14,999 bases of DNA from a virus (lineage: Duplodnaviria > Heunggongvirae > Uroviricota > Caudoviricetes). Positions 4,218-13,228 of the stretch are shown here, piece after piece. A model generated the notes under the pieces. The model was not told where the DNA came from. It made no database searches and was given only the letters and a program-made list of their open reading frames with translations. The position numbers and the translations under genes were made by a program. The DNA lies in the IMG/VR virus record IMGVR_UViG_2563366959_000014; one strand, written 5' to 3'. How positions within the stretch are numbered: the first letter of the stretch is position 1; each line of letters begins with the position of its first letter.

Positions 4218-4552
4218 TTTTCCGCGCCCTCACGACAAAGAATTTCAAGGCGTGTCCTGGCGGCATCCGGCAGCGGCTGCCCGATGATATTCAGTACACG
4301 CCCCGCCAGCGGCCCCGTATTGACCTTTATCCGGCTGGTGGCGTTGATGTCCTTCCGGTACCGTATCCAGATCCTTACGGTACCAATCGCCAGCTCTGCA
4401 CCCGATGAAATGGCCTCCTTGCTGCTGACCATGTTCACGCTTGCCCAGAGTGTGTGACCGTCCTCCCACGTTTCGAGTATTTCTCCCGTCATGGCTCTGG
4501 TCTGTTTCAGGGTCTGAATCGTTACCCTGTCACGCAGTCGCCCTATGTTCAT
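4214..4552 (-). CDS. Head closure / head-tail adaptor protein
   Basis: Begins MNIGRLRDRVTIQ, with the IRYR and NIIG motifs typical of head-tail joining proteins; ATG at 4552 overlaps the portal stop (ATGA). An alternative start at 4594 is possible. Confidence 0.8.
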   Translation of the reverse strand: MNIGRLRDRVTIQTLKQTRAMTGEILETWEDGHTLWASVNMVSSKEAISSGAELAIGTVRIWIRYRKDINATSRIKVNTGPLAGRVLNIIGQPLPDAARTRLEILCREGAEK

Positions 4553-5760
4553 TCCGGTTTTTCTCCCTCGCTGATTTTTACTTCCTGTTTCCATGCCTGG
4601 CTGAACTCATCACCACCATCACGCGGAGACAACCCTTCTCGTTCGCGGGCTTCGTTCGGGCACATAACACCGGATTTGATGCCTCGCTCATAGGTGGCAA
4701 AGCGTTCGCCAGGTGTGGCCCGTAACAGGTCCGCGCTGTCAAACTCCACCTGATACCGGATACCAGGTACAGGCGAGACCACCAGCAAAGCGTTTTTTAT
4801 CTGCTGCTCAAAGTTCGCCAGCCACGGGCGCATCGTCATGGTGAGAAATGCGCGGCTTGCCTCGCTGAAATTGCTGTAGGTGCTGTTGCTGTATTCCTGC
4901 AGAAAAATCGGCGAGACGTTGAACATTCGGGCGATGTCTTCAATGGTGAAGCGACGGGAGGCCAGCCATTCGGCGTCCTGGTTACTCATGCCCAGCTGCT
5001 GGTAACTCATGCCCCCTTCAAGGATGGGCGTTTTTCCGGCGTTTTTGGCCCCTTTATAGCGTTCCAGTGCGGCTAATGCCTGTTTGCCTTTCACGCCGTC
5101 CAGCCATTCGCCTGACGTGATAACCCCTGCCGCCATCATGCCATCACGCATCACGCTCGCGCCGTGGCGTTGTTGGGCCAGCCCAAGCCCCAGCGATTCG
5201 CGGCAGATGGTTACGGGTGAGCGCCCCATAAAGCCGTCATCCGTGGAGTAACGAAGGTGAAGTACTTCCCACGGTAAATAGTTGCGGGTGTTTCCGGTGT
5301 AGGCGTCAGTGATGCAATAGCGCCAGTTGTGTTCTCCTGTCTGCTCCACGTTCACCGACTGCGGCGGGTAAGGATGTAAAGCCGCCGGAAAACCATCACG
5401 CCCCCACTGAATCACCGCGTAAGCATTACCGTTTAACAGGCAGTGGCGGATCATCATTCGCTTAAACTGGTAGGGAGTCTGCCACGCGTTCGGGCGCTCG
5501 TTGAGGATGTGATCGACCGGATGAGAATCAAGCCACTCGCGGGCCTCCTTCCCCTTCTCATTGCGTACCAGGTACAGGTAACACGGCATAGTAGCCACCG
5601 CCTCAGAGATGACCGTGACGGCGTTCATGACGGCGGGCAGTGATTCCGCTGTCCCCGATGATACATACTCACCCGCCCCCGTGTTTAATGTACCAGCCAG
5701 CGCCATAAATTCATCAAGCGTCATGCTGCGCTGCTCTTTTTTTCTTCTGAAAGGCCACAT
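4549..5760 (-). CDS. Portal protein, HK97 family
   Basis: 403 aa, portal-like sequence features; ATG at 5760 one nt after the protease stop, GGGGGTG Shine-Dalgarno. Confidence 0.9.
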   Translation of the reverse strand: MWPFRRKKEQRSMTLDEFMALAGTLNTGAGEYVSSGTAESLPAVMNAVTVISEAVATMPCYLYLVRNEKGKEAREWLDSHPVDHILNERPNAWQTPYQFKRMMIRHCLLNGNAYAVIQWGRDGFPAALHPYPPQSVNVEQTGEHNWRYCITDAYTGNTRNYLPWEVLHLRYSTDDGFMGRSPVTICRESLGLGLAQQRHGASVMRDGMMAAGVITSGEWLDGVKGKQALAALERYKGAKNAGKTPILEGGMSYQQLGMSNQDAEWLASRRFTIEDIARMFNVSPIFLQEYSNSTYSNFSEASRAFLTMTMRPWLANFEQQIKNALLVVSPVPGIRYQVEFDSADLLRATPGERFATYERGIKSGVMCPNEAREREGLSPRDGGDEFSQAWKQEVKISEGEKPE

Positions 5761-6374: not shown

Positions 6375-7532
6375 TTAATCGTCGTCCTGTGGCAGTTCCA
6401 GAATCTTGATCGCGTTCGAATCCACCACGCCACCGCCTAAATATTTCTGCGTGAAAATTTTGATGAATCCTGGTTCTGTCAGGTTGTCCGGTCTGGTGCG
6501 AACACCCGTTTCGTGATCAACAATGTAGTAACCGCGTTTGAAGTCACCCAGGGCAATAACGTTATCCGGCATAAACTCCAGATATTCGACCGGAAGGCCC
6601 AGCAACGTATCAGGATCACCAGCCTGTAAACGGTCGCGCCAGATGTAATCACCGTTCGCGTTCTTCACCTTCTGAAGTTTTGCCGCCGTCGTGGAGTTAA
6701 CCACCCAGACCGCGTTTTTGCGGTATTTTTTACGTAATGCAAATTTCAGGTCGATCAGCGGGTCCGCAGATGTCCACGCAAGAGACTCAGAAGGCTTAAT
6801 TACCTGCAACGTACCAAAATCACGCTCTTTGTCGTTCTTCTCTGCACGGGGTACGGATAAAAAGCCTTTTGCTTTTTTGTCACCGTCGCCCACAACCAGA
6901 TCGCTTTCTTCGATTTCCGTGAAGGTGTCGCCAATCTCGCCCGTCAGCCATGAAAGGATGTCCACATCGGAAAAATCCACGATTTCCTGTGTGGTGCGCG
7001 GGTACGCATAGACCGGATACAGCTTAATGCTCACCTCGTTAATCTGCGGGGTGCTGGTCTGTTCGCGTGACTTACCCTCTTCACCGTGGTTAACGGTCGC
7101 ACCGCCAGCGGAAACAAGCTGCTTAAACTCGTTGCTGCTGATTTTCTTCACGGTACAGATGCGGCGCATGGTGGATTCATCCGCCAGCATTCGCATGATT
7201 TCGGTGTTCAGTTCAGGGATAACGGTATAACCACCATCAGCGGGGACACCTGTACTTAATGCGCGGGTTTCACCTGTCAGGATGTAGTTGCGGAGTTCTG
7301 CCGGGTCAGTGGTCTGGCTGCTTTTACCTGGCTTGCTGCGATCTTCGTCTGCAATGGCTTCAAGGCGGGAAATGTCTTTATCGAGGGATTCAGCTTTAGC
7401 GCGTAATTCGTCAAATTTTGCGCCCTCTGCATCGTTAAGGCTGCGGTTTTCTTTTTCCGCGTTCTCCAGCATGTCGCGCATCTGATTTTTAATGGCGGTT
7501 TTCTGCTGGCGTAATTCGATTATTCTCGGCAT
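6375..7532 (-). CDS. Major capsid protein, HK97 fold
   Basis: 385 aa from the ATG at 7532 (MPRIIELRQQ); N-terminal coiled-coil-like delta-domain region followed by a capsid-like body; directly upstream of protease and portal. Confidence 0.9.
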   Translation of the reverse strand: MPRIIELRQQKTAIKNQMRDMLENAEKENRSLNDAEGAKFDELRAKAESLDKDISRLEAIADEDRSKPGKSSQTTDPAELRNYILTGETRALSTGVPADGGYTVIPELNTEIMRMLADESTMRRICTVKKISSNEFKQLVSAGGATVNHGEEGKSREQTSTPQINEVSIKLYPVYAYPRTTQEIVDFSDVDILSWLTGEIGDTFTEIEESDLVVGDGDKKAKGFLSVPRAEKNDKERDFGTLQVIKPSESLAWTSADPLIDLKFALRKKYRKNAVWVVNSTTAAKLQKVKNANGDYIWRDRLQAGDPDTLLGLPVEYLEFMPDNVIALGDFKRGYYIVDHETGVRTRPDNLTEPGFIKIFTQKYLGGGVVDSNAIKILELPQDDD

Positions 7533-7540
7533 AAAAAAAA

Positions 7541-7570
7541 GTCCTGGGGTTAAGTAAGGAACTCCAGGAC
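7541..7570 (-). promoter_or_regulatory. Stem-loop followed by U8, immediately 5' of the capsid start codon
   Basis: GTCCTGG / CCAGGAC stem with a 16-nt loop, then eight T on the minus strand running straight into the capsid ATG; the only AGGA-like Shine-Dalgarno lies in the 3' stem arm. Confidence 0.3.
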
Positions 7571-7748
7571 GCGGCAAAAACTCAACCGTTTTTCATAAGG
7601 AAATCAGCAATCGCACCGATCGTTTTCCCGCCTGGTAATGAATATTGGTGAGCACATTAACAGGCGGGAAAGTGGCCCCAGCGTCCTGGCACCACTGGCG
7701 AGAATAATCATGATTCAGGGCGGGTAAAATATGCCGATCCGGTCAATG

Positions 7749-7773
7749 AACAACGTGGAACGACCACGAACAA
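7749..7773 (+). promoter_or_regulatory. Copy B of the composite direct-repeat site (AACAACGTGGAACGACCACGAACAA)
   Basis: Exact 13-mer shared with 252-264 and 13702-13714; about 215 bp upstream of the capsid operon start. Confidence 0.4.
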
Positions 7774-7790
7774 ATAATTTACAAAAAATT

Positions 7791-7814
7791 ACAAAAAGCC
7801 GGATTGCTCCGGCT
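7791..7814 (-). terminator. Rho-independent terminator (minus strand)
   Basis: AGCCGGA / TCCGGCT stem, 4-nt loop, followed on the minus strand by TTTTTGT; 10 nt after the stop of the 74-aa gene. Confidence 0.7.
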
Positions 7815-7824
7815 GTATGGGTGC

Positions 7825-8049
7825 TCAGTCCCTGATCCCTTTCAGAAATTCTATCAATGCATCTATCTGTTCAGGATTTACTGCCAGCATTTCACCGGAT
7901 AGAGCACATCTCACAAAACCATGCTGATCCTTTTCAATCAGTGCGCCCGTCTCCAGGAATGCGCGGTAATCATTGATGTTCATCGTCTCCATGTTGTCAG
8001 CATGGTATTTATCACGCTGTTTTAATATCTCATCAAATTTCATCGGCAT
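7825..8049 (-). CDS. Hypothetical protein (74 aa), moron-like cargo
   Basis: ATG at 8049 with AGAGGA Shine-Dalgarno; AT-rich relative to neighbours; bracketed by two near-identical terminator hairpins. No family recognised. Confidence 0.6.
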   Translation of the reverse strand: MPMKFDEILKQRDKYHADNMETMNINDYRAFLETGALIEKDQHGFVRCALSGEMLAVNPEQIDALIEFLKGIRD

Positions 8050-8144
8050 TGTTTTTTCCTCTGTTGTGTCTGTTTGTTTCAGATAGTAACTATGCCGGAC
8101 CGTGACGAAAAGCCGGTAATGCGCCATACCGTTTCAACTGGCGC

Positions 8145-8168
8145 AAAAAAAGCCGGATTTCTCCGGCT
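8145..8168 (-). terminator. Rho-independent terminator (minus strand), near-duplicate of 7791-7814
   Basis: AGCCGGA / TCCGGCT stem with a T-run on the minus strand; 6 nt after the PerC-like stop. Confidence 0.7.
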
Positions 8169-8174
8169 GTGTGA

Positions 8175-8447
8175 TTAGCTGTCCTGGTAATTGCGCCATA
8201 TTTCATCACCAGCACCATCTATACCCATTTCGGCATAAGTGCGATTGACTGCCTTTCTCAGGTCTCCGAAATTATCAGGCGGCTCCGGTGGCCTCTGTGC
8301 CTTCCTGGAACATTCCAGCCGTCGCATCGTGATGTGATGCCGTTCCTTGTCTGTCTCCACCAGCATCATGACTTCACCCCATCGCGCCGCCGCCCTCCGG
8401 TAAAATCCTTTCGCTTCGAGTTCTTCCGCTATGCGGTCATGTACCAT
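8175..8447 (-). CDS. PerC-family small transcriptional regulator (90 aa)
   Basis: N-terminus MVHDRIAEELEAKGFYRRAAARWGEVM matches the conserved AE.LE..G.YRRA..RW signature of PerC/Pch proteins as I recall it. ATG at 8447 with GAGGGGGTGA Shine-Dalgarno just after the SSB stop. Confidence 0.6.
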   Translation of the reverse strand: MVHDRIAEELEAKGFYRRAAARWGEVMMLVETDKERHHITMRRLECSRKAQRPPEPPDNFGDLRKAVNRTYAEMGIDGAGDEIWRNYQDS

Positions 8448-8457
8448 CGTCACCCCC

Positions 8458-8868
8458 TCAGAACGGAATATCATCACCGTAAGGGTCATCGCCTCCCGCT
8501 GGTGGCTGATTACCCTGTGTGCCTGTGGTTTTGCGTCTGCTGCCGCCTGGTCGCACCGTTTTCGCACTGATTACGCTGTCGGCAATGACCTGATAACCCT
8601 GACGCGTCTCCCCGTTCTGTCCGGTCCACTGGCTTACCTGCATCGTGCCGGATACGCTGATTACGTTGCCTTTCTCATGTCCTGCCAGTTGGTCGGCCTG
8701 TTTGCCAAATGCCAGGACCGACAGCCATAACGTAGCCTGCCCGTCCTGCGCCTGACTGCATGGCAACGATACCGCCATACGCGCCAGCGTCATCGGTGTG
8801 CCCTTGCTGGTCTGTTTTACCTGCGGGTCGTCCACCAGCCGCCCGTAAGCTGCAATTTGTGCTGTCAT
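8458..8868 (-). CDS. ssb: Single-stranded DNA-binding protein (SSB)
   Basis: OB-fold-like N-terminal region, a Gly/Gln/Pro-rich linker, and the canonical acidic C-terminal tip ending DDIPF. Confidence 0.85.
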   Translation of the reverse strand: MTAQIAAYGRLVDDPQVKQTSKGTPMTLARMAVSLPCSQAQDGQATLWLSVLAFGKQADQLAGHEKGNVISVSGTMQVSQWTGQNGETRQGYQVIADSVISAKTVRPGGSRRKTTGTQGNQPPAGGDDPYGDDIPF

Positions 8869-8877
8869 ATTGCCACC

Positions 8878-9183
8878 TCAGTGAAGCGATCCGGCGTTGT
8901 TCTTTTTCATCTCTTCCATCATTTTTTCAGTGAGCATTACACACTGAAAACCCATGTTTTTGATGTCTACGGGTTTCATGCCTTTGTCAGTGGATATCAC
9001 AGGCAGAATATCCTGATACACATCGCGGTCAGGGTAACTAAGCACACAAAGCGCCCATGATGCCACAGGTGAGGATCCTTCGTCTGTTTCAACCCACCAG
9101 CCTGGTGTAGCTGCGCTTATTTGCAGAATCGTGATCCGTCCGTTGTGCTTGTAAAATTTTTCACCAAATTTTGGTTCGCTCAT
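8878..9183 (-). CDS. Hypothetical protein (101 aa)
   Basis: ATG at 9183 overlapping the upstream stop (ATGA), GGAGAGGTGG Shine-Dalgarno. No family recognised. Confidence 0.6.
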   Translation of the reverse strand: MSEPKFGEKFYKHNGRITILQISAATPGWWVETDEGSSPVASWALCVLSYPDRDVYQDILPVISTDKGMKPVDIKNMGFQCVMLTEKMMEEMKKNNAGSLH

Positions 9184-9425
9184 GATTCCACCTCTCCGGT
9201 TTTAACGTTGATGGTTGTTACCTGTTCCGCTTCGGCAATCTCCCGTTCTGTCAGCGTGGCAAAGTTTGCAGCTGCCGTTGTCATGAATGCGCTAATCAGT
9301 TCGGGATGTGCTTTCGCATATCCTTCCCCGGCGTTGCGGTCGATGATTTTTATCGACACCCTTAACCAGTGTTCCGTCAAATCAAGGGCGTGCGATTGTG
9401 ATTTTTTTGTGTGCTTCGCTGTCAT
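9180..9425 (-). CDS. Hypothetical protein (81 aa)
   Basis: ATG at 9425, first gene downstream of the origin on the minus strand. No family recognised. Confidence 0.55.
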   Translation of the reverse strand: MTAKHTKKSQSHALDLTEHWLRVSIKIIDRNAGEGYAKAHPELISAFMTTAAANFATLTEREIAEAEQVTTINVKTGEVES

Positions 9426-9466
9426 AGGCTTTATCTCACAGCAGTAAATTAAAATTTTTGCGTTTT

Positions 9467-9700
9467 AACCCTTCACCTGTTCACCTTTTGATATTTTATC
9501 TTTTAATTCATAATGTTAAGGGGTGAACAGTTTCACAAAAACTATTCACCAACTGTTCACCACTGTTCACCCTTGAAGCTCAATAAACAATCAAAAAGGT
9601 GAACAGTGAATAGTTTGGTGAACAGTTCATAAATAACTGTTCACCCTATAATATACTGATATAAAAGATATTTATGACAGGGTGAACAGTGGTGAACAGT
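9467..9700. repeat. Replication origin: about ten GGTGAACAG / CTGTTCACC iterons in both orientations within an AT-rich segment
   Basis: Iteron copies at 9478-9485, 9522-9530, 9543-9550, 9553-9561, 9563-9571, 9598-9606, 9617-9625, 9638-9646, 9681-9689 and 9691-9699; the segment lies directly 3' of the primase gene. Confidence 0.75.
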
Positions 9701-9712
9701 TATTCCATAAGT

Positions 9713-11530
9713 TTAATTTTTGCTATCGTCATTAGTGACCGATACACATGACGGCATCCAGTCTTCTGATTCCTCCGTCAGTGTCACGTTTGAACGCAAA
9801 CCGTGCTTCGTTTTCCGTTTCATATACTCCCTGCCATATTCCGCCATTGCCCCCGGCATATCTTTACCGAAGCGCGTCAGTGTTACAGGTTTACCAAACC
9901 CATGTGCCTTCATATAAGCCAGATAGGCATGATAGAGATACCTGCGCGGGCTGAATGGCACAATTTCAGCATTACCCACTAACAGGCCATCACACATTAC
10001 CGACGCCATGAGATAGCCGCAGAAGTCCACCAGCGAATCACCTTCACGCTTTATCGCGAGTGCTTCTTCTGATTTCTGCTGCTCATATAAAAGGCGTCTG
10101 GCTTCGTCCTGGTCAGCAAACCGTGTAAGCAGATGACGAATCACTACCGCCAGCTCACCTTCTATTTTTTCCGCCAGCATTGAATCGCGTTCGTTCTCCG
10201 GTACAACTTCCGAAAAATTGAATATCACCCGACGGCGCGAGATCCCCCCGCTGCGGTCACTGAATGACATGGCGTTATTGTTAACCGCCAGCACTACTGC
10301 CGGAATACGCGTTGAGTAGGGGGCTTTGTGTTTCGGGTCAATTGCCACCTTGTCACCGCCTGTAATGGCCTTAATTCCTGCCCCATCACCAGCGTAGCGG
10401 GTCATATCCGGCATGATAATCAGCGAAAAGCCAACCACTAACGCGCGTTCCCTTGCATCTTCCAGCGCCTTCATGCTTGCCGATACTGTGTTGGCCTTAC
10501 CCGCCAGCATGGTGCAAATCTCCGCCATCACGCTTTTACCACTTCCCCCTGGACCTGTTACCTCAATGAATAACTGCCAGTCGTACCGGTTCGCCAGCAC
10601 CATGAATAATGCAGCCAGTACGCGATCCGCCTTGCGGTCATTCTCAGCCACCGAACGGCGTAACCACTTCCAGAAATTCGGCGCATGTGTTGCCAGCGTT
10701 TCTCCCTCTGCTGGTGGGCTGAAAGGTAATTCACTGGCAATTAACAACCAGTCGTTTTTGTTATGCTCCCGAAAATCGCCTGTCCGGGTATCAAAAACAC
10801 CGTTACTGAATCCAATCAGGTTACGGGCTGTATTCCCCATTACAGGCAAACTTAACTTCATGGTATCGACCGCCGATTTAATGGCGTTCTGCGAATAGCT
10901 GATCTCCGCATCAATGAAAATCTGTGCCATAGCTCGCTGTAATTCTTTATCCTGTACTGGCTCCCATACAACGCCGTTGTAATAGTGAACAGTGTCAGAG
11001 TCAGCATGAATCGCCAGTTCACCGCCATAATGTGCCAGGAGAACTTCGCCGCGTTGACTTGCTCCCATCTGGTTAAGCGCCAGTGATGAAGCGTTATCGT
11101 CTTTTACCCGCTCTTTTTTCTTTACAGGCAGTTCAACTACCTTTTTCTTTTCCGCCTGCTCTGCCCGTTCACGTTCCAGATATTCGCGCCAGTTCTCCCG
11201 TTTCTGGCTGTGCATTCCTTCAGGGTAATAATCAGCATCCCTGACACCTGCCGCTGCCAGTTTCTGCCCGATGGTATTAACAAGCCCCGGACGCAATAAC
11301 CCCGCCTGGTAGAGACGCACGCGATAGCGTCCGTCCGGTACGATTTGCAGGTTGTCCAGTTCGGCAAGTTGTTGCTCTCCAAGCCAGACAGGAGGCACGC
11401 TGTCGCCAGCCAGTCGCCCGTCCTGTTCCTGCCACTGCTTCGCATGTGCCCACGCATCACTACCCGCAAAAATGATGACTTCCGTCATTTTGTCACGTGG
11501 CTGGTGTTTTAAATTTGGCGCTTTTTTCAT
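9713..11530 (-). CDS. Replication primase/NTPase, P4-alpha C-terminal-domain family
   Basis: 605 aa from the ATG at 11530 (MKKAPNL), which overlaps the upstream stop (ATGA) and follows a GGAGAG Shine-Dalgarno. Walker A motif GPGGSGKS and a Walker B-like hydrophobic stretch; followed by the iteron origin. Confidence 0.85.
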   Translation of the reverse strand: MKKAPNLKHQPRDKMTEVIIFAGSDAWAHAKQWQEQDGRLAGDSVPPVWLGEQQLAELDNLQIVPDGRYRVRLYQAGLLRPGLVNTIGQKLAAAGVRDADYYPEGMHSQKRENWREYLERERAEQAEKKKVVELPVKKKERVKDDNASSLALNQMGASQRGEVLLAHYGGELAIHADSDTVHYYNGVVWEPVQDKELQRAMAQIFIDAEISYSQNAIKSAVDTMKLSLPVMGNTARNLIGFSNGVFDTRTGDFREHNKNDWLLIASELPFSPPAEGETLATHAPNFWKWLRRSVAENDRKADRVLAALFMVLANRYDWQLFIEVTGPGGSGKSVMAEICTMLAGKANTVSASMKALEDARERALVVGFSLIIMPDMTRYAGDGAGIKAITGGDKVAIDPKHKAPYSTRIPAVVLAVNNNAMSFSDRSGGISRRRVIFNFSEVVPENERDSMLAEKIEGELAVVIRHLLTRFADQDEARRLLYEQQKSEEALAIKREGDSLVDFCGYLMASVMCDGLLVGNAEIVPFSPRRYLYHAYLAYMKAHGFGKPVTLTRFGKDMPGAMAEYGREYMKRKTKHGLRSNVTLTEESEDWMPSCVSVTNDDSKN

Positions 11531-11826
11531 TTCTGCTCTCTCCACGCGGCAATCATGTTTTTTAGTTCCTGTAGTTTTTTATCAACATCCATACATGACA
11601 CATGGTTATTTCTGGAAAGCGGGATTTCCCGCCTGAATCTGCTAATAAAGATCTCCACGTTCAGCGAACTAAGAAATGAATAGCCATCACGGATAAAATA
11701 CACTCGGTCAAACATCAGTTCTTTTACCGTTACTCTGTTACCGTTCTTATCCAGATAAATAGCGCCGGGGATAATTTGGGGGTGTGCATAACCGCTGGCA
11801 GTCAAGCCAGATAAATATGTTCTCAT
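11527..11826 (-). CDS. Hypothetical protein (99 aa), AT-rich
   Basis: ATG at 11826 with GGGGA Shine-Dalgarno; stop overlaps the primase start. No family recognised. Confidence 0.55.
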   Translation of the reverse strand: MRTYLSGLTASGYAHPQIIPGAIYLDKNGNRVTVKELMFDRVYFIRDGYSFLSSLNVEIFISRFRREIPLSRNNHVSCMDVDKKLQELKNMIAAWREQK

Positions 11827-11832
11827 GATTAT

Positions 11833-12153
11833 TTATCCCCGATTTAAATCAGTATTCGCTTTCTTTATAGCATTTAATGCATCTTTGGCATTTTCAATGG
11901 TGCACCGTAACGAAATATCAAACTGTCCAAGCATTGCCAGTAACAAACCGATATTACCCATATCAATGCGCATGGCCTTTTCGTCATATTCCTTATTTTC
12001 TGACGCATACCACATCAGGCTACCAATTGACGAAACAGCCATTGATATATTGTCAGTAGCCCCATCCGCAGCGGAATAAACCTTTTTAGCAATATCATGC
12101 TCACAGTTAAAATGCGGATTAATCAGGTACTGGTAATTGGTCATGTCAGTCAT
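11833..12153 (-). CDS. Hypothetical protein (106 aa), AT-rich
   Basis: ATG at 12153 (alternative at 12144), overlapping the 3' end of the upstream small gene. No family recognised. Confidence 0.55.
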   Translation of the reverse strand: MTDMTNYQYLINPHFNCEHDIAKKVYSAADGATDNISMAVSSIGSLMWYASENKEYDEKAMRIDMGNIGLLLAMLGQFDISLRCTIENAKDALNAIKKANTDLNRG

Positions 12154-12349
12154 GGCACACCCCCTGACGAATACGGGCGGCGAATACCATCACGCAGCCA
12201 GCCGGGGATTGCTGGCGTGCTTCCTGTTCGCTGCTGGCCTCAATGGTAATCACGCGCGGTTGTGCCGTGCTCAGGGCGATAAAACGCCAGATGTATTTAT
12301 TCAGGTTGTGCGAGTCCCGCCCTTGCGGGTGTGTGGTATGATTTCTCAT
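12146..12349 (-). CDS. Hypothetical protein (67 aa), first gene of the minus-strand replication operon
   Basis: ATG at 12349 with GAGGT Shine-Dalgarno at 4-nt spacing; this is the C-terminal 67 codons of a longer spurious ORF. Weak support. Confidence 0.4.
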   Translation of the reverse strand: MRNHTTHPQGRDSHNLNKYIWRFIALSTAQPRVITIEASSEQEARQQSPAGCVMVFAARIRQGVCHD

Positions 12350-12445
12350 AGCTACCTCGATACTTTCGCTATCGTTGGTGGTTAGAAGCCCGGTTAGTGT
12401 TAGCGCACTGCCGGGTTTCGTCGTTTCTGCACCTTGCGCCAACAA

Positions 12446-12499
12446 GGTGTTGAACACCAATTTAAACCCAGGTGTTAAACACGTCAAGTGTTGAACACT
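12446..12499. promoter_or_regulatory. Three palindromic operators (GTGTT-N-AACAC) in a divergent promoter region
   Basis: GGTGTTGAACACC at 12446-12458, GGTGTTAAACACG at 12471-12483, AGTGTTGAACACT at 12487-12499. The third overlaps a plus-strand -35-like TTGAAC (12491-12496), with a 17-bp spacer to a -10-like CATACT (12514-12519). Confidence 0.6.
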
Positions 12500-12548
12500 T
12501 ATTTTTTTTCCTGCATACTGCATTTGTTTTTTATGAGGGGTACACCAC

Positions 12549-12728
12549 ATGGCGACAAAAGCAGTAAACGCAAAATCACAAACCGTTGCGGCAAGGGTTC
12601 CGCATGAAGTTATGAACAATGTTGAGGCGGTAAAAATGCCTGGCGAAAGTACGGGGCAATTTGTTACTGCAGCATTAAAACGAGAAGTTGAATATCGCCA
12701 GCGGCGCAAGGCCAAAGAACCAGAGTAA
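12549..12728 (+). CDS. Ribbon-helix-helix (Arc/CopG-like) DNA-binding protein, 59 aa
   Basis: Not in the supplied ORF track (under 60 aa). ATG at 12549 with GAGGGG Shine-Dalgarno. TVAARVP (beta strand), HEVMNNVEAV (helix), GESTGQ (turn), FVTAALKREV (helix) fits the RHH pattern. Divergent from the replication operon. Confidence 0.55.
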   Translation: MATKAVNAKSQTVAARVPHEVMNNVEAVKMPGESTGQFVTAALKREVEYRQRRKAKEPE

Positions 12729-12785
12729 TCACCATCAGCGCCGTGGTGTAAGGTATTACGGCGCATTGCTATGCAGGACAACACA

Positions 12786-12959
12786 ATGACCGATAAAGAA
12801 TTGACCAAAACATTATCACCGGCACGGAAAAGACGGCGCAGAAAGATAGAGCATGAATCAGAAAGATTCGCGCCATGTGCTTTTGCCCTTGAGCAATTCC
12901 TTAAAGAGTACAGGGAAAAGCGCTCATTGCAGGTATGGCAACGAACTGAACCAGACTGA
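12786..12959 (+). CDS. Small basic hypothetical protein (57 aa)
   Basis: ATG at 12786 with AGGA upstream (alternative start at 12771); contains an RKRRRRK basic tract; followed by a terminator. Confidence 0.4.
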   Translation: MTDKELTKTLSPARKRRRRKIEHESERFAPCAFALEQFLKEYREKRSLQVWQRTEPD

Positions 12960-13054
12960 TAGCATTGCCCACCAGCCTGATAGCGACTATCATTGCCGTT
13001 CTTATGTTTGGGATCACACACACAAACGGCGCAGCGGGTTATCTGTTCAGAAAG

Positions 13055-13082
13055 GCGGCTCCATTTCGGGGCCGCTTTTTTT
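13055..13082 (+). terminator. Rho-independent terminator (plus strand)
   Basis: GCGGC / GCCGC stem followed by seven T, about 95 nt after the stop of the second plus-strand small gene. Confidence 0.6.
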
Positions 13083-13228
13083 ATGTCTGAAAAACCCCAA
13101 TTTTGTTGTTTTTCAGTTTCACCAGGGCGAACGAATCCCCGCCCACGTTCGGGCGCATATTCAATCTTCATGGTTATAGCTCTGTGTTCAGATGATTGAT
13201 GTGTGGCGGCTGCGTGCCGCCAGCGTGA

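Follow-up and report, generated by a model that had tools for sequence, protein, structure and literature searches.

Introduction

The replication origin of a Gram-negative phage-inducible chromosomal island (PICI) is the region directly 3′ of its pri-rep gene, where iterons flank an AT-rich stretch (Fillol-Salom et al. 2018, PMC6092414). Autonomous, rep-dependent plasmid replication has been shown only for the allele of EcCICFT073, whose pri-ori plasmid is maintained only when rep and ori are both intact (PMC6092414). The Pri-Rep proteins of these islands were described there as just distantly related to the alpha protein of satellite phage P4, which joins a primase, a superfamily 3 (SF3) helicase and, for DNA binding, a domain of winged-helix fold (PMC2777425). 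A gene set has been described for the capsid-forming PICIs (cf-PICIs), one of which, EcCIEDL933, replicates after helper induction; origins and iterons are not discussed in that paper (bioRxiv 10.1101/2022.09.08.507074). Here we analyze positions 9426-9712 of a viral DNA of 14,999 bp (IMG/VR record IMGVR_UViG_2563366959_000014), the whole of which we call the window. This segment very probably serves an E. coli cf-PICI as its vegetative replication origin, one of the P4 alpha type.

The segment had been proposed, in a sequence-only reading, to be an iteron-type origin immediately 3′ of a primase gene, in the rep-ori layout of chromosomal islands. The gene order of PICIs and the published position of their origins support that proposal. 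Further support comes from an iteron identical to the type 1 repeat of P4, an origin-binding domain of the P4 alpha type, and the co-variation of the two among relatives. As far as the text of PMC6092414 allows the comparison, the P4 alpha type appears to be a new allele within a known kind of origin.

Results

The iteron array

The segment is exactly the 287-bp intergenic gap between two minus-strand genes. The stop codon of the initiator gene, rep, occupies 9713-9715, and the ATG of the next gene lies at 9425. GC content in the gap is 33%, against 50% for the window. The 9-mer GGTGAACAG/CTGTTCACC occurs nine times without mismatch in the window, every time inside 9477-9699. Dinucleotide-preserving shuffles of the window contained a mean of 0.13 copies and a maximum of 1, and none of 200 reached nine. 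Read on the plus strand, the exact copies of CTGTTCACC are at 9477, 9553, 9563 and 9637, and those of GGTGAACAG are at 9522, 9598, 9617, 9681 and 9691. Three degenerate iterons complete a total of twelve sites: GGTGAATAG at 9542-9550, found in a mismatch-tolerant search, TATTCACT at 9605-9612 and CCTTCACC at 9470-9477. The core octamer of the 9-mer is TGTTCACC, likewise present in nine exact copies, direct and inverted, plus the three variants. No other cluster of the TGTTCACC motif exists in the entire island and its flanks.

Followed along the direction of transcription, the array opens 13 nt past the rep stop codon, and its final iteron ends 44 nt ahead of the next ATG. The sequence-only reading had counted about ten copies in both orientations, in an AT-rich stretch starting right after the stop codon of the upstream gene. 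All of this was borne out, with twelve sites distributed over both strands and two internal spacers of only 17-20% GC.

By its layout, the array joins two modules resembling P4 ori, set back to back with a 26-bp centre between them. Module A (9590..9710, plus strand) begins with an iteron triplet at 9598-9605, 9605-9612 (degenerate) and 9617-9624, followed by a 13-bp gap, an inverted iteron at 9638-9645, 35 bp of AT-rich DNA, and an iteron pair at 9681-9688 and 9691-9698. Module B (9460..9580, minus strand) repeats this order, with its triplet at 9564-9571, 9554-9561 and 9543-9550 (the last with one mismatch), a 13-bp gap, the inverted iteron at 9522-9529, 36 bp of AT-rich DNA, and its pair at 9478-9485 and 9470-9477 (the latter degenerate). 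The two AT-rich stretches, spacer 1 (9486..9521, 36 bp, 17% GC) and spacer 2 (9646..9680, 35 bp, 20% GC), both have convergent iterons at their ends and are candidate DNA-unwinding elements. A central spacer (9572..9597, 26 bp, 27% GC) forms the dyad axis that divides the modules.

The whole region (9426..9712, listed on the minus strand) thus combines twelve iterons and two AT-rich spacers with an overall dyad symmetry. The symmetry is seen in the single-stranded fold of 9465-9705, which reaches -52.1 kcal/mol (z = -9.2 versus shuffles), and in hairpin matches of the Rfam scan. That scan, covering 9100-10000, returned only long-hairpin miRNA models, far below threshold and on both strands; we attribute these to the dyad and reject an RNA gene here. 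The last iteron is followed, up to the start of the next gene, by an A/T-rich tail of about TTAAACGCAWATTTTTWAATTTTATAG (9426..9468, minus strand). The tail is kept across genera even where the downstream gene is different, and no consensus promoter was detected in it.

Comparison with P4 ori and crr

The octamer TGTTCACC is annotated as the "ori type 1 repeat" in the GenBank record of P4 (NC_001609). P4 ori, at 9310-9413 of that record, has six exact copies. P4 crr, at 4291-4590, has five in each of its two 120-bp repeats. Modules A and B both give a colinear, almost gapless alignment with P4 ori 9300-9425. The agreement is easiest to see in a notation where > marks TGTTCACC on whichever strand is read and < marks the complementary sequence, with the gap lengths in bp written between them. 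P4 ori then reads <2<3<14>35<2<. Module B, on the minus strand from 9571 to 9470, reads <2<3<13>36<0<, and module A, on the plus strand from 9598 to 9698, reads <-1<4<13>35<2<. A P4 crr repeat reads <6>10>35<1<.

The initiator protein

The gene upstream of the array is annotated as encoding a "DNA primase family protein". As an open reading frame (ORF) it spans 9713-11545 on the minus strand; from the RefSeq start it spans 9713..11530 and encodes 605 aa. The protein consists of an N-terminal module of ~140 aa, D5_N, an SF3 helicase, and a C-terminal Pox_D5/winged-helix origin-binding domain, in that order. The corresponding Pfam matches are D5_N at residues 167-296, DUF5906 (the SF3 helicase) at 330-438 and Pox_D5 at 501-596. 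Over residues 150-600 the protein shares 50% identity with P4 alpha; the figure is 52% in the SF3 helicase and 48% in the origin-binding domain. Residues 502-598 match PDB 1KA8, the solved origin-binding domain of P4 alpha, at E=1.5e-24. For the binding of alpha to the type 1 iteron we draw on the P4 GenBank annotation, the entry name of 1KA8, PMC2777425 and general knowledge.

The sequence-only reading had called this gene a primase gene. The adjoining initiator gene is there, with P4 alpha homology in its helicase and C-terminal parts; the primase domains are not. Pfam finds both Zn_Ribbon_Prim and Toprim_3 in P4 alpha, and no match to zinc-ribbon or Toprim primase domains in the initiator, whose residues 1-165 match no Pfam family even at E values up to 10. 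When the N-terminal module was compared with P4 alpha by profile, only the D5_N part was matched and the Toprim region was left unmatched. The name "primase" stems from a sub-threshold match to TIGR01613, "primase_Cterm". The Toprim residues were read from the family alignment, without superposition: an invariant Ala (IIFAGSD) follows the first strand at the position of the Toprim catalytic Glu, and the alignment has no DxD after the third strand. We conclude that the initiator is an origin-binding helicase that probably cannot prime. Because it has no recognisable primase, priming is probably carried out by host DnaG.

Three database proteins, P0003, P0005 and P0053, join the first ~140 residues of the initiator directly to SSB or PerC. 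They look like products of island deletion derivatives in which helicase, binding domain and origin have all been lost.

Conservation and co-variation among relatives

A scan using one genome per species yielded 72 loci encoding relatives of the initiator. PICI-type relatives, with proteins of ~600 aa, come from Raoultella, Kluyvera, Pluralibacter, Klebsiella, Citrobacter, Serratia and Escherichia ruysiae. The array layout of the window stands directly after the stop codon in all of these except the E. ruysiae locus (L007), whose array is longer and differently spaced. For spacer 2, whose 35 bp are also the spacer length of P4 ori and of P4 crr, all relatives fall within 35-39 bp. Conservation is concentrated in the repeats: across eight elements with the TGTTCACC core, from six genera, 62 of 95 iteron columns are invariant versus 49 of the 192 remaining columns (Fisher p about 1e-10). 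The genes that follow the array vary among relatives, and the only constant neighbour is the initiator gene. Within 4 kb on either side, the PICI-type relatives have no second cluster of the motif.

In some relatives the core has changed at all sites together. Loci L007, L011 and L012 have TGTCTACC at the same positions, L014 and L015 have TGTCCGCC, and L016 has TGTCCACC. Among P4-like elements the core is TGTGCACC in Proteus and TCTCTACC in Symbiopectobacterium. The initiators of L007, L011 and L012 are 89-92% identical to that of the window in the helicase core, but just 67-70% identical in the binding domain. The domain segment KRKTKHG-LRSN is replaced there by KCT(K/R)GPDKGR(V/T)I(T/S)N, with an insertion of five residues. 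P4 alpha, at 48% domain identity, keeps KRHTKQG-IQTN, and so has the KR(K/H)TK(H/Q)G segment in common with the window, along with TGTTCACC as its iteron. Iteron sequence thus co-varies with one segment of the binding domain. We take this to support, without proving, a cognate relation between the array and the adjacent initiator.

Two relatives deserve separate mention. L003 (LR881103, "Escherichia phage vB_KppS-Ant", 1-16548) was deposited as a phage and has the gene set of a cf-PICI. Its initiator is 74% identical to that of the window and is followed by eight exact TGTTCACC sites. The linear record opens 22 nt ahead of terS, which suggests a cos site there. L017, from Erwinia rhapontici, is P4-like, encodes an alpha homologue of 812 aa, and has two TGTTCACC clusters, at 1052-1137 and 7508-7603. 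The alpha-homologue gene sits between them, ~1.8 kb from the upstream and ~2.1 kb from the downstream cluster, so that they form an ori/crr-like pair placed otherwise than in P4.

The island

The segment is 100% identical to sequence in E. coli chromosomes. Of 5,426 complete E. coli genomes, 652 contain it, about 500 of them at no less than 95% identity. An identical island in E. coli FORC_028 interrupts tqsA. RefSeq annotation of that island, together with Pfam, gives the gene order int, an alpA-type helix-turn-helix gene, an Icd-like gene, DUF4222, rep, the gap, two small ORFs, SSB and PerC, followed by major capsid (a Phage_capsid match in Pfam), prohead protease, portal, head closure/connectors, HNH, TerS and TerL. 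All genes from int to TerL are on the minus strand of the window, and neither source shows tail genes in the island. This is the cf-PICI gene set described in bioRxiv 10.1101/2022.09.08.507074, and the window is a cf-PICI of E. coli close to EcCIEDL933. It is not EcCIEDL933 itself, as the rep-ori cassettes differ.

The island SSB (8458..8868, minus strand; Pfam SSB at 2.1e-16, and RefSeq annotation) is a probable replication accessory. Next to it lies a PerC-family regulator (8175-8447, minus strand; Pfam E=3.6e-43). PICI-encoded PerC homologues have been reported as activators of the LEE pathogenicity island (PMC6092414). At 12146-13171 on the minus strand, the mechanically listed ORF of 341 aa is probably no gene. 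RefSeq places there a 204-nt Icd-like gene, at the 3′ end of the 341-aa ORF, and two small plus-strand genes, one of the YlcI/YnfO family and one hypothetical.

Discussion

Gram-negative PICI origins directly 3′ of pri-rep have been published and, for EcCICFT073, tested, and this supports reading the array as an origin. The P4 iteron, the P4 alpha-type binding domain and their co-variation give the origin its type. We propose the following course of events. Every step of it, binding, melting, helicase loading and primer source included, is deduced from homology and architecture. A helper phage would turn on the island's single leftward, alpA-dependent operon, and the 605-aa initiator would be made. 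Its C-terminal winged-helix domain would bind the twelve TGTTCACC sites. The SF3 helicase could then assemble on the bound DNA and open one or both of the 35-36-bp AT-rich spacers between convergent sites. Because modules A and B are mirror images, two helicase rings could be loaded facing apart, leading to bidirectional replication. Primers would most likely come from host DnaG, and the island SSB would coat the opened strands.

Several points weigh against this reading. First, the region offers no host-factor site in its support. Searches of 9400-9730 found no DnaA box (no match to TTWTNCACA, and none to TTATCCACA at up to one mismatch), no IHF consensus, no GATC, no Fis site and no 13-mer. 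Second, the cluster directly 3′ of P4 alpha is crr, a cis-acting auxiliary site rather than the site of initiation, and P4 needs both ori and crr. The window has a single cluster, with no separate crr-like one. Third, the initiator lacks the primase domains of P4 alpha and cannot work exactly as alpha does in P4. Fourth, the lineages sampled for co-variation are few, related and non-independent. Finally, we found no experiment in the literature on 9426-9712 or its rep allele. In full texts, TGTTCACC was matched only by unrelated primers.

The second of these points leads to the strongest rival explanation, that the array is a crr-like auxiliary site, bound by the initiator and stimulating replication in cis while initiation occurs elsewhere. 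The position directly 3′ of an alpha-like gene is that of P4 crr, and a crr repeat, too, has convergent iterons around a 35-bp spacer. However, the number and spacing of sites fit P4 ori (3-1-2, gaps 14 and 35) and not crr (1-2-2, gaps 6, 10 and 35). A second cluster of the motif is absent from the island and its flanks, and from the 4 kb searched on either side in the PICI-type relatives. We consider a crr-like role very unlikely.

There is also little chance that the array is mainly a transcriptional operator, through which the initiator or another island protein controls read-through or a promoter for SSB, PerC and capsid genes. The array does lie between two co-directional genes, with the conserved A/T-rich tail ahead of the second. 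Initiators of iteron replicons often autoregulate, which fits the same idea. Yet a scan of 9100-9900 detected neither a sigma-70-type consensus promoter nor an intrinsic terminator on either strand. Twelve mirrored sites and two 35-bp AT-rich spacers match a mapped phage origin and go far beyond what an operator needs. The genes that such an operator would serve vary among relatives, whereas the array does not. The array may have a regulatory side-role alongside replication.

Could the array be an inactive relic, left in an island whose replicon fell silent without a primase domain and which is now copied passively? The absence of zinc-ribbon and Toprim matches from the initiator would fit such a history, as would the database proteins that fuse the N-terminus of rep to SSB or PerC. 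We find this highly improbable in view of how the segment has been kept. Some 500 complete E. coli genomes have it nearly unchanged, its iteron columns are preferentially conserved across genera, and the joint change of iterons and binding domain requires selection. Moreover, EcCICFT073, whose Rep of 584 aa likewise has no primase, supports plasmid replication (PMC6092414). A packaging (cos or pac) site for the island's own terminase, which must exist somewhere since the island encodes HNH, TerS and TerL, is almost certainly not what the array is: the record of the related induced element LR881103 points to a cos site just upstream of terS, and the motif and layout of the array are those of P4 ori and track the DNA-binding domain of the initiator, not the terminase.

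Within the origin reading, a bolder model can be offered tentatively, though we think it more likely wrong than right. The island would carry a primase-less P4 alpha replicon, in which ori and crr of P4 have been replaced by one palindromic double origin, primed by DnaG and loaded with two back-to-back SF3 rings as at the origins of papillomavirus and SV40. Because the iteron octamer is identical, P4 alpha and the island initiator could cross-fire or compete. This would take place in E. coli strains harbouring both kinds of satellite, of which there are many.

What this adds is modest. The kind of element has already been described, and the understanding of such origins is unchanged. The origin can now be placed in a common satellite island of E. 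coli, and its allele is built from P4 parts. The points added are P4-ori iterons and geometry, two modules in one palindrome, a primase-less initiator, and a rep-ori swap relative to EcCIEDL933. Together they link two satellite families whose replication proteins have been described as only distantly related. The swap adds a clear example of rep-ori cassettes exchanged as units between near-identical islands.

A tested relative is EcCICFT073. Its rep-ori could be located as a 288-bp gap with CTGTCTACC iterons in a similar layout. The two islands share the order int, alpA, ..., DUF4222, rep, ori, SSB, PerC, and in both the origin is directly 3′ of rep, with inverted and direct iterons flanking AT-rich DNA. 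The Rep proteins have the same primase-less domain order and the same N-terminal module. Identity is 48% overall, falling from 68% in the N-terminal module through 47% in the helicase to 33% in the binding domain. The origins differ in the iteron itself and in the second spacer, which is GC-rich in EcCICFT073.

EcCIEDL933 was located between roxA and phoQ in EDL933. Its backbone is 93-96% identical to that of the window in int-alpA and from SSB to terL, and an iteron array occupies the same gap. In contrast, its Rep is a DUF927 protein of 710 aa that has only the N-terminal 140 aa in common with the window protein (69% identity), and its origin consists of 11 copies of TAACCCGC. Window ~9150-12150 corresponds to 7100-10800 of the EDL933 locus (L081), with flanks at the backbone identity given above; the rep-ori cassette has been swapped whole. 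Among cf-PICIs this is a clear-cut case of a replicon exchanged as a module. The rep-ori of staphylococcal SaPIs, from a Gram-positive host, is unrelated in both sequence and helicase lineage.

Among plasmids, the origins of pSC101, R6K and RK2 resemble the array in having a winged-helix initiator that binds repeats beside an AT-rich unwinding element (PMC4980987). Unlike the window protein, their initiators are not helicases and depend on DnaA boxes and DnaB loading (PMC4980987).

In common with P4, the window has the identical type 1 octamer, and each module follows the order of P4 ori, with three sites, a gap of 13-14 bp, a single inverted site, AT-rich DNA of 35-36 bp and two sites. The initiator has the SF3 helicase and winged-helix origin-binding domain of alpha, and lacks its zinc-ribbon and Toprim primase. 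Where P4 keeps ori and crr 4.5 kb apart, the window has two modules adjoining at one place. That place, 3′ of the initiator gene, is the position of crr in P4, whereas the geometry is that of ori. The carrier differs as well, since this cf-PICI encodes its own capsid and terminase and has no P4-type genes for capsid size or late regulation.
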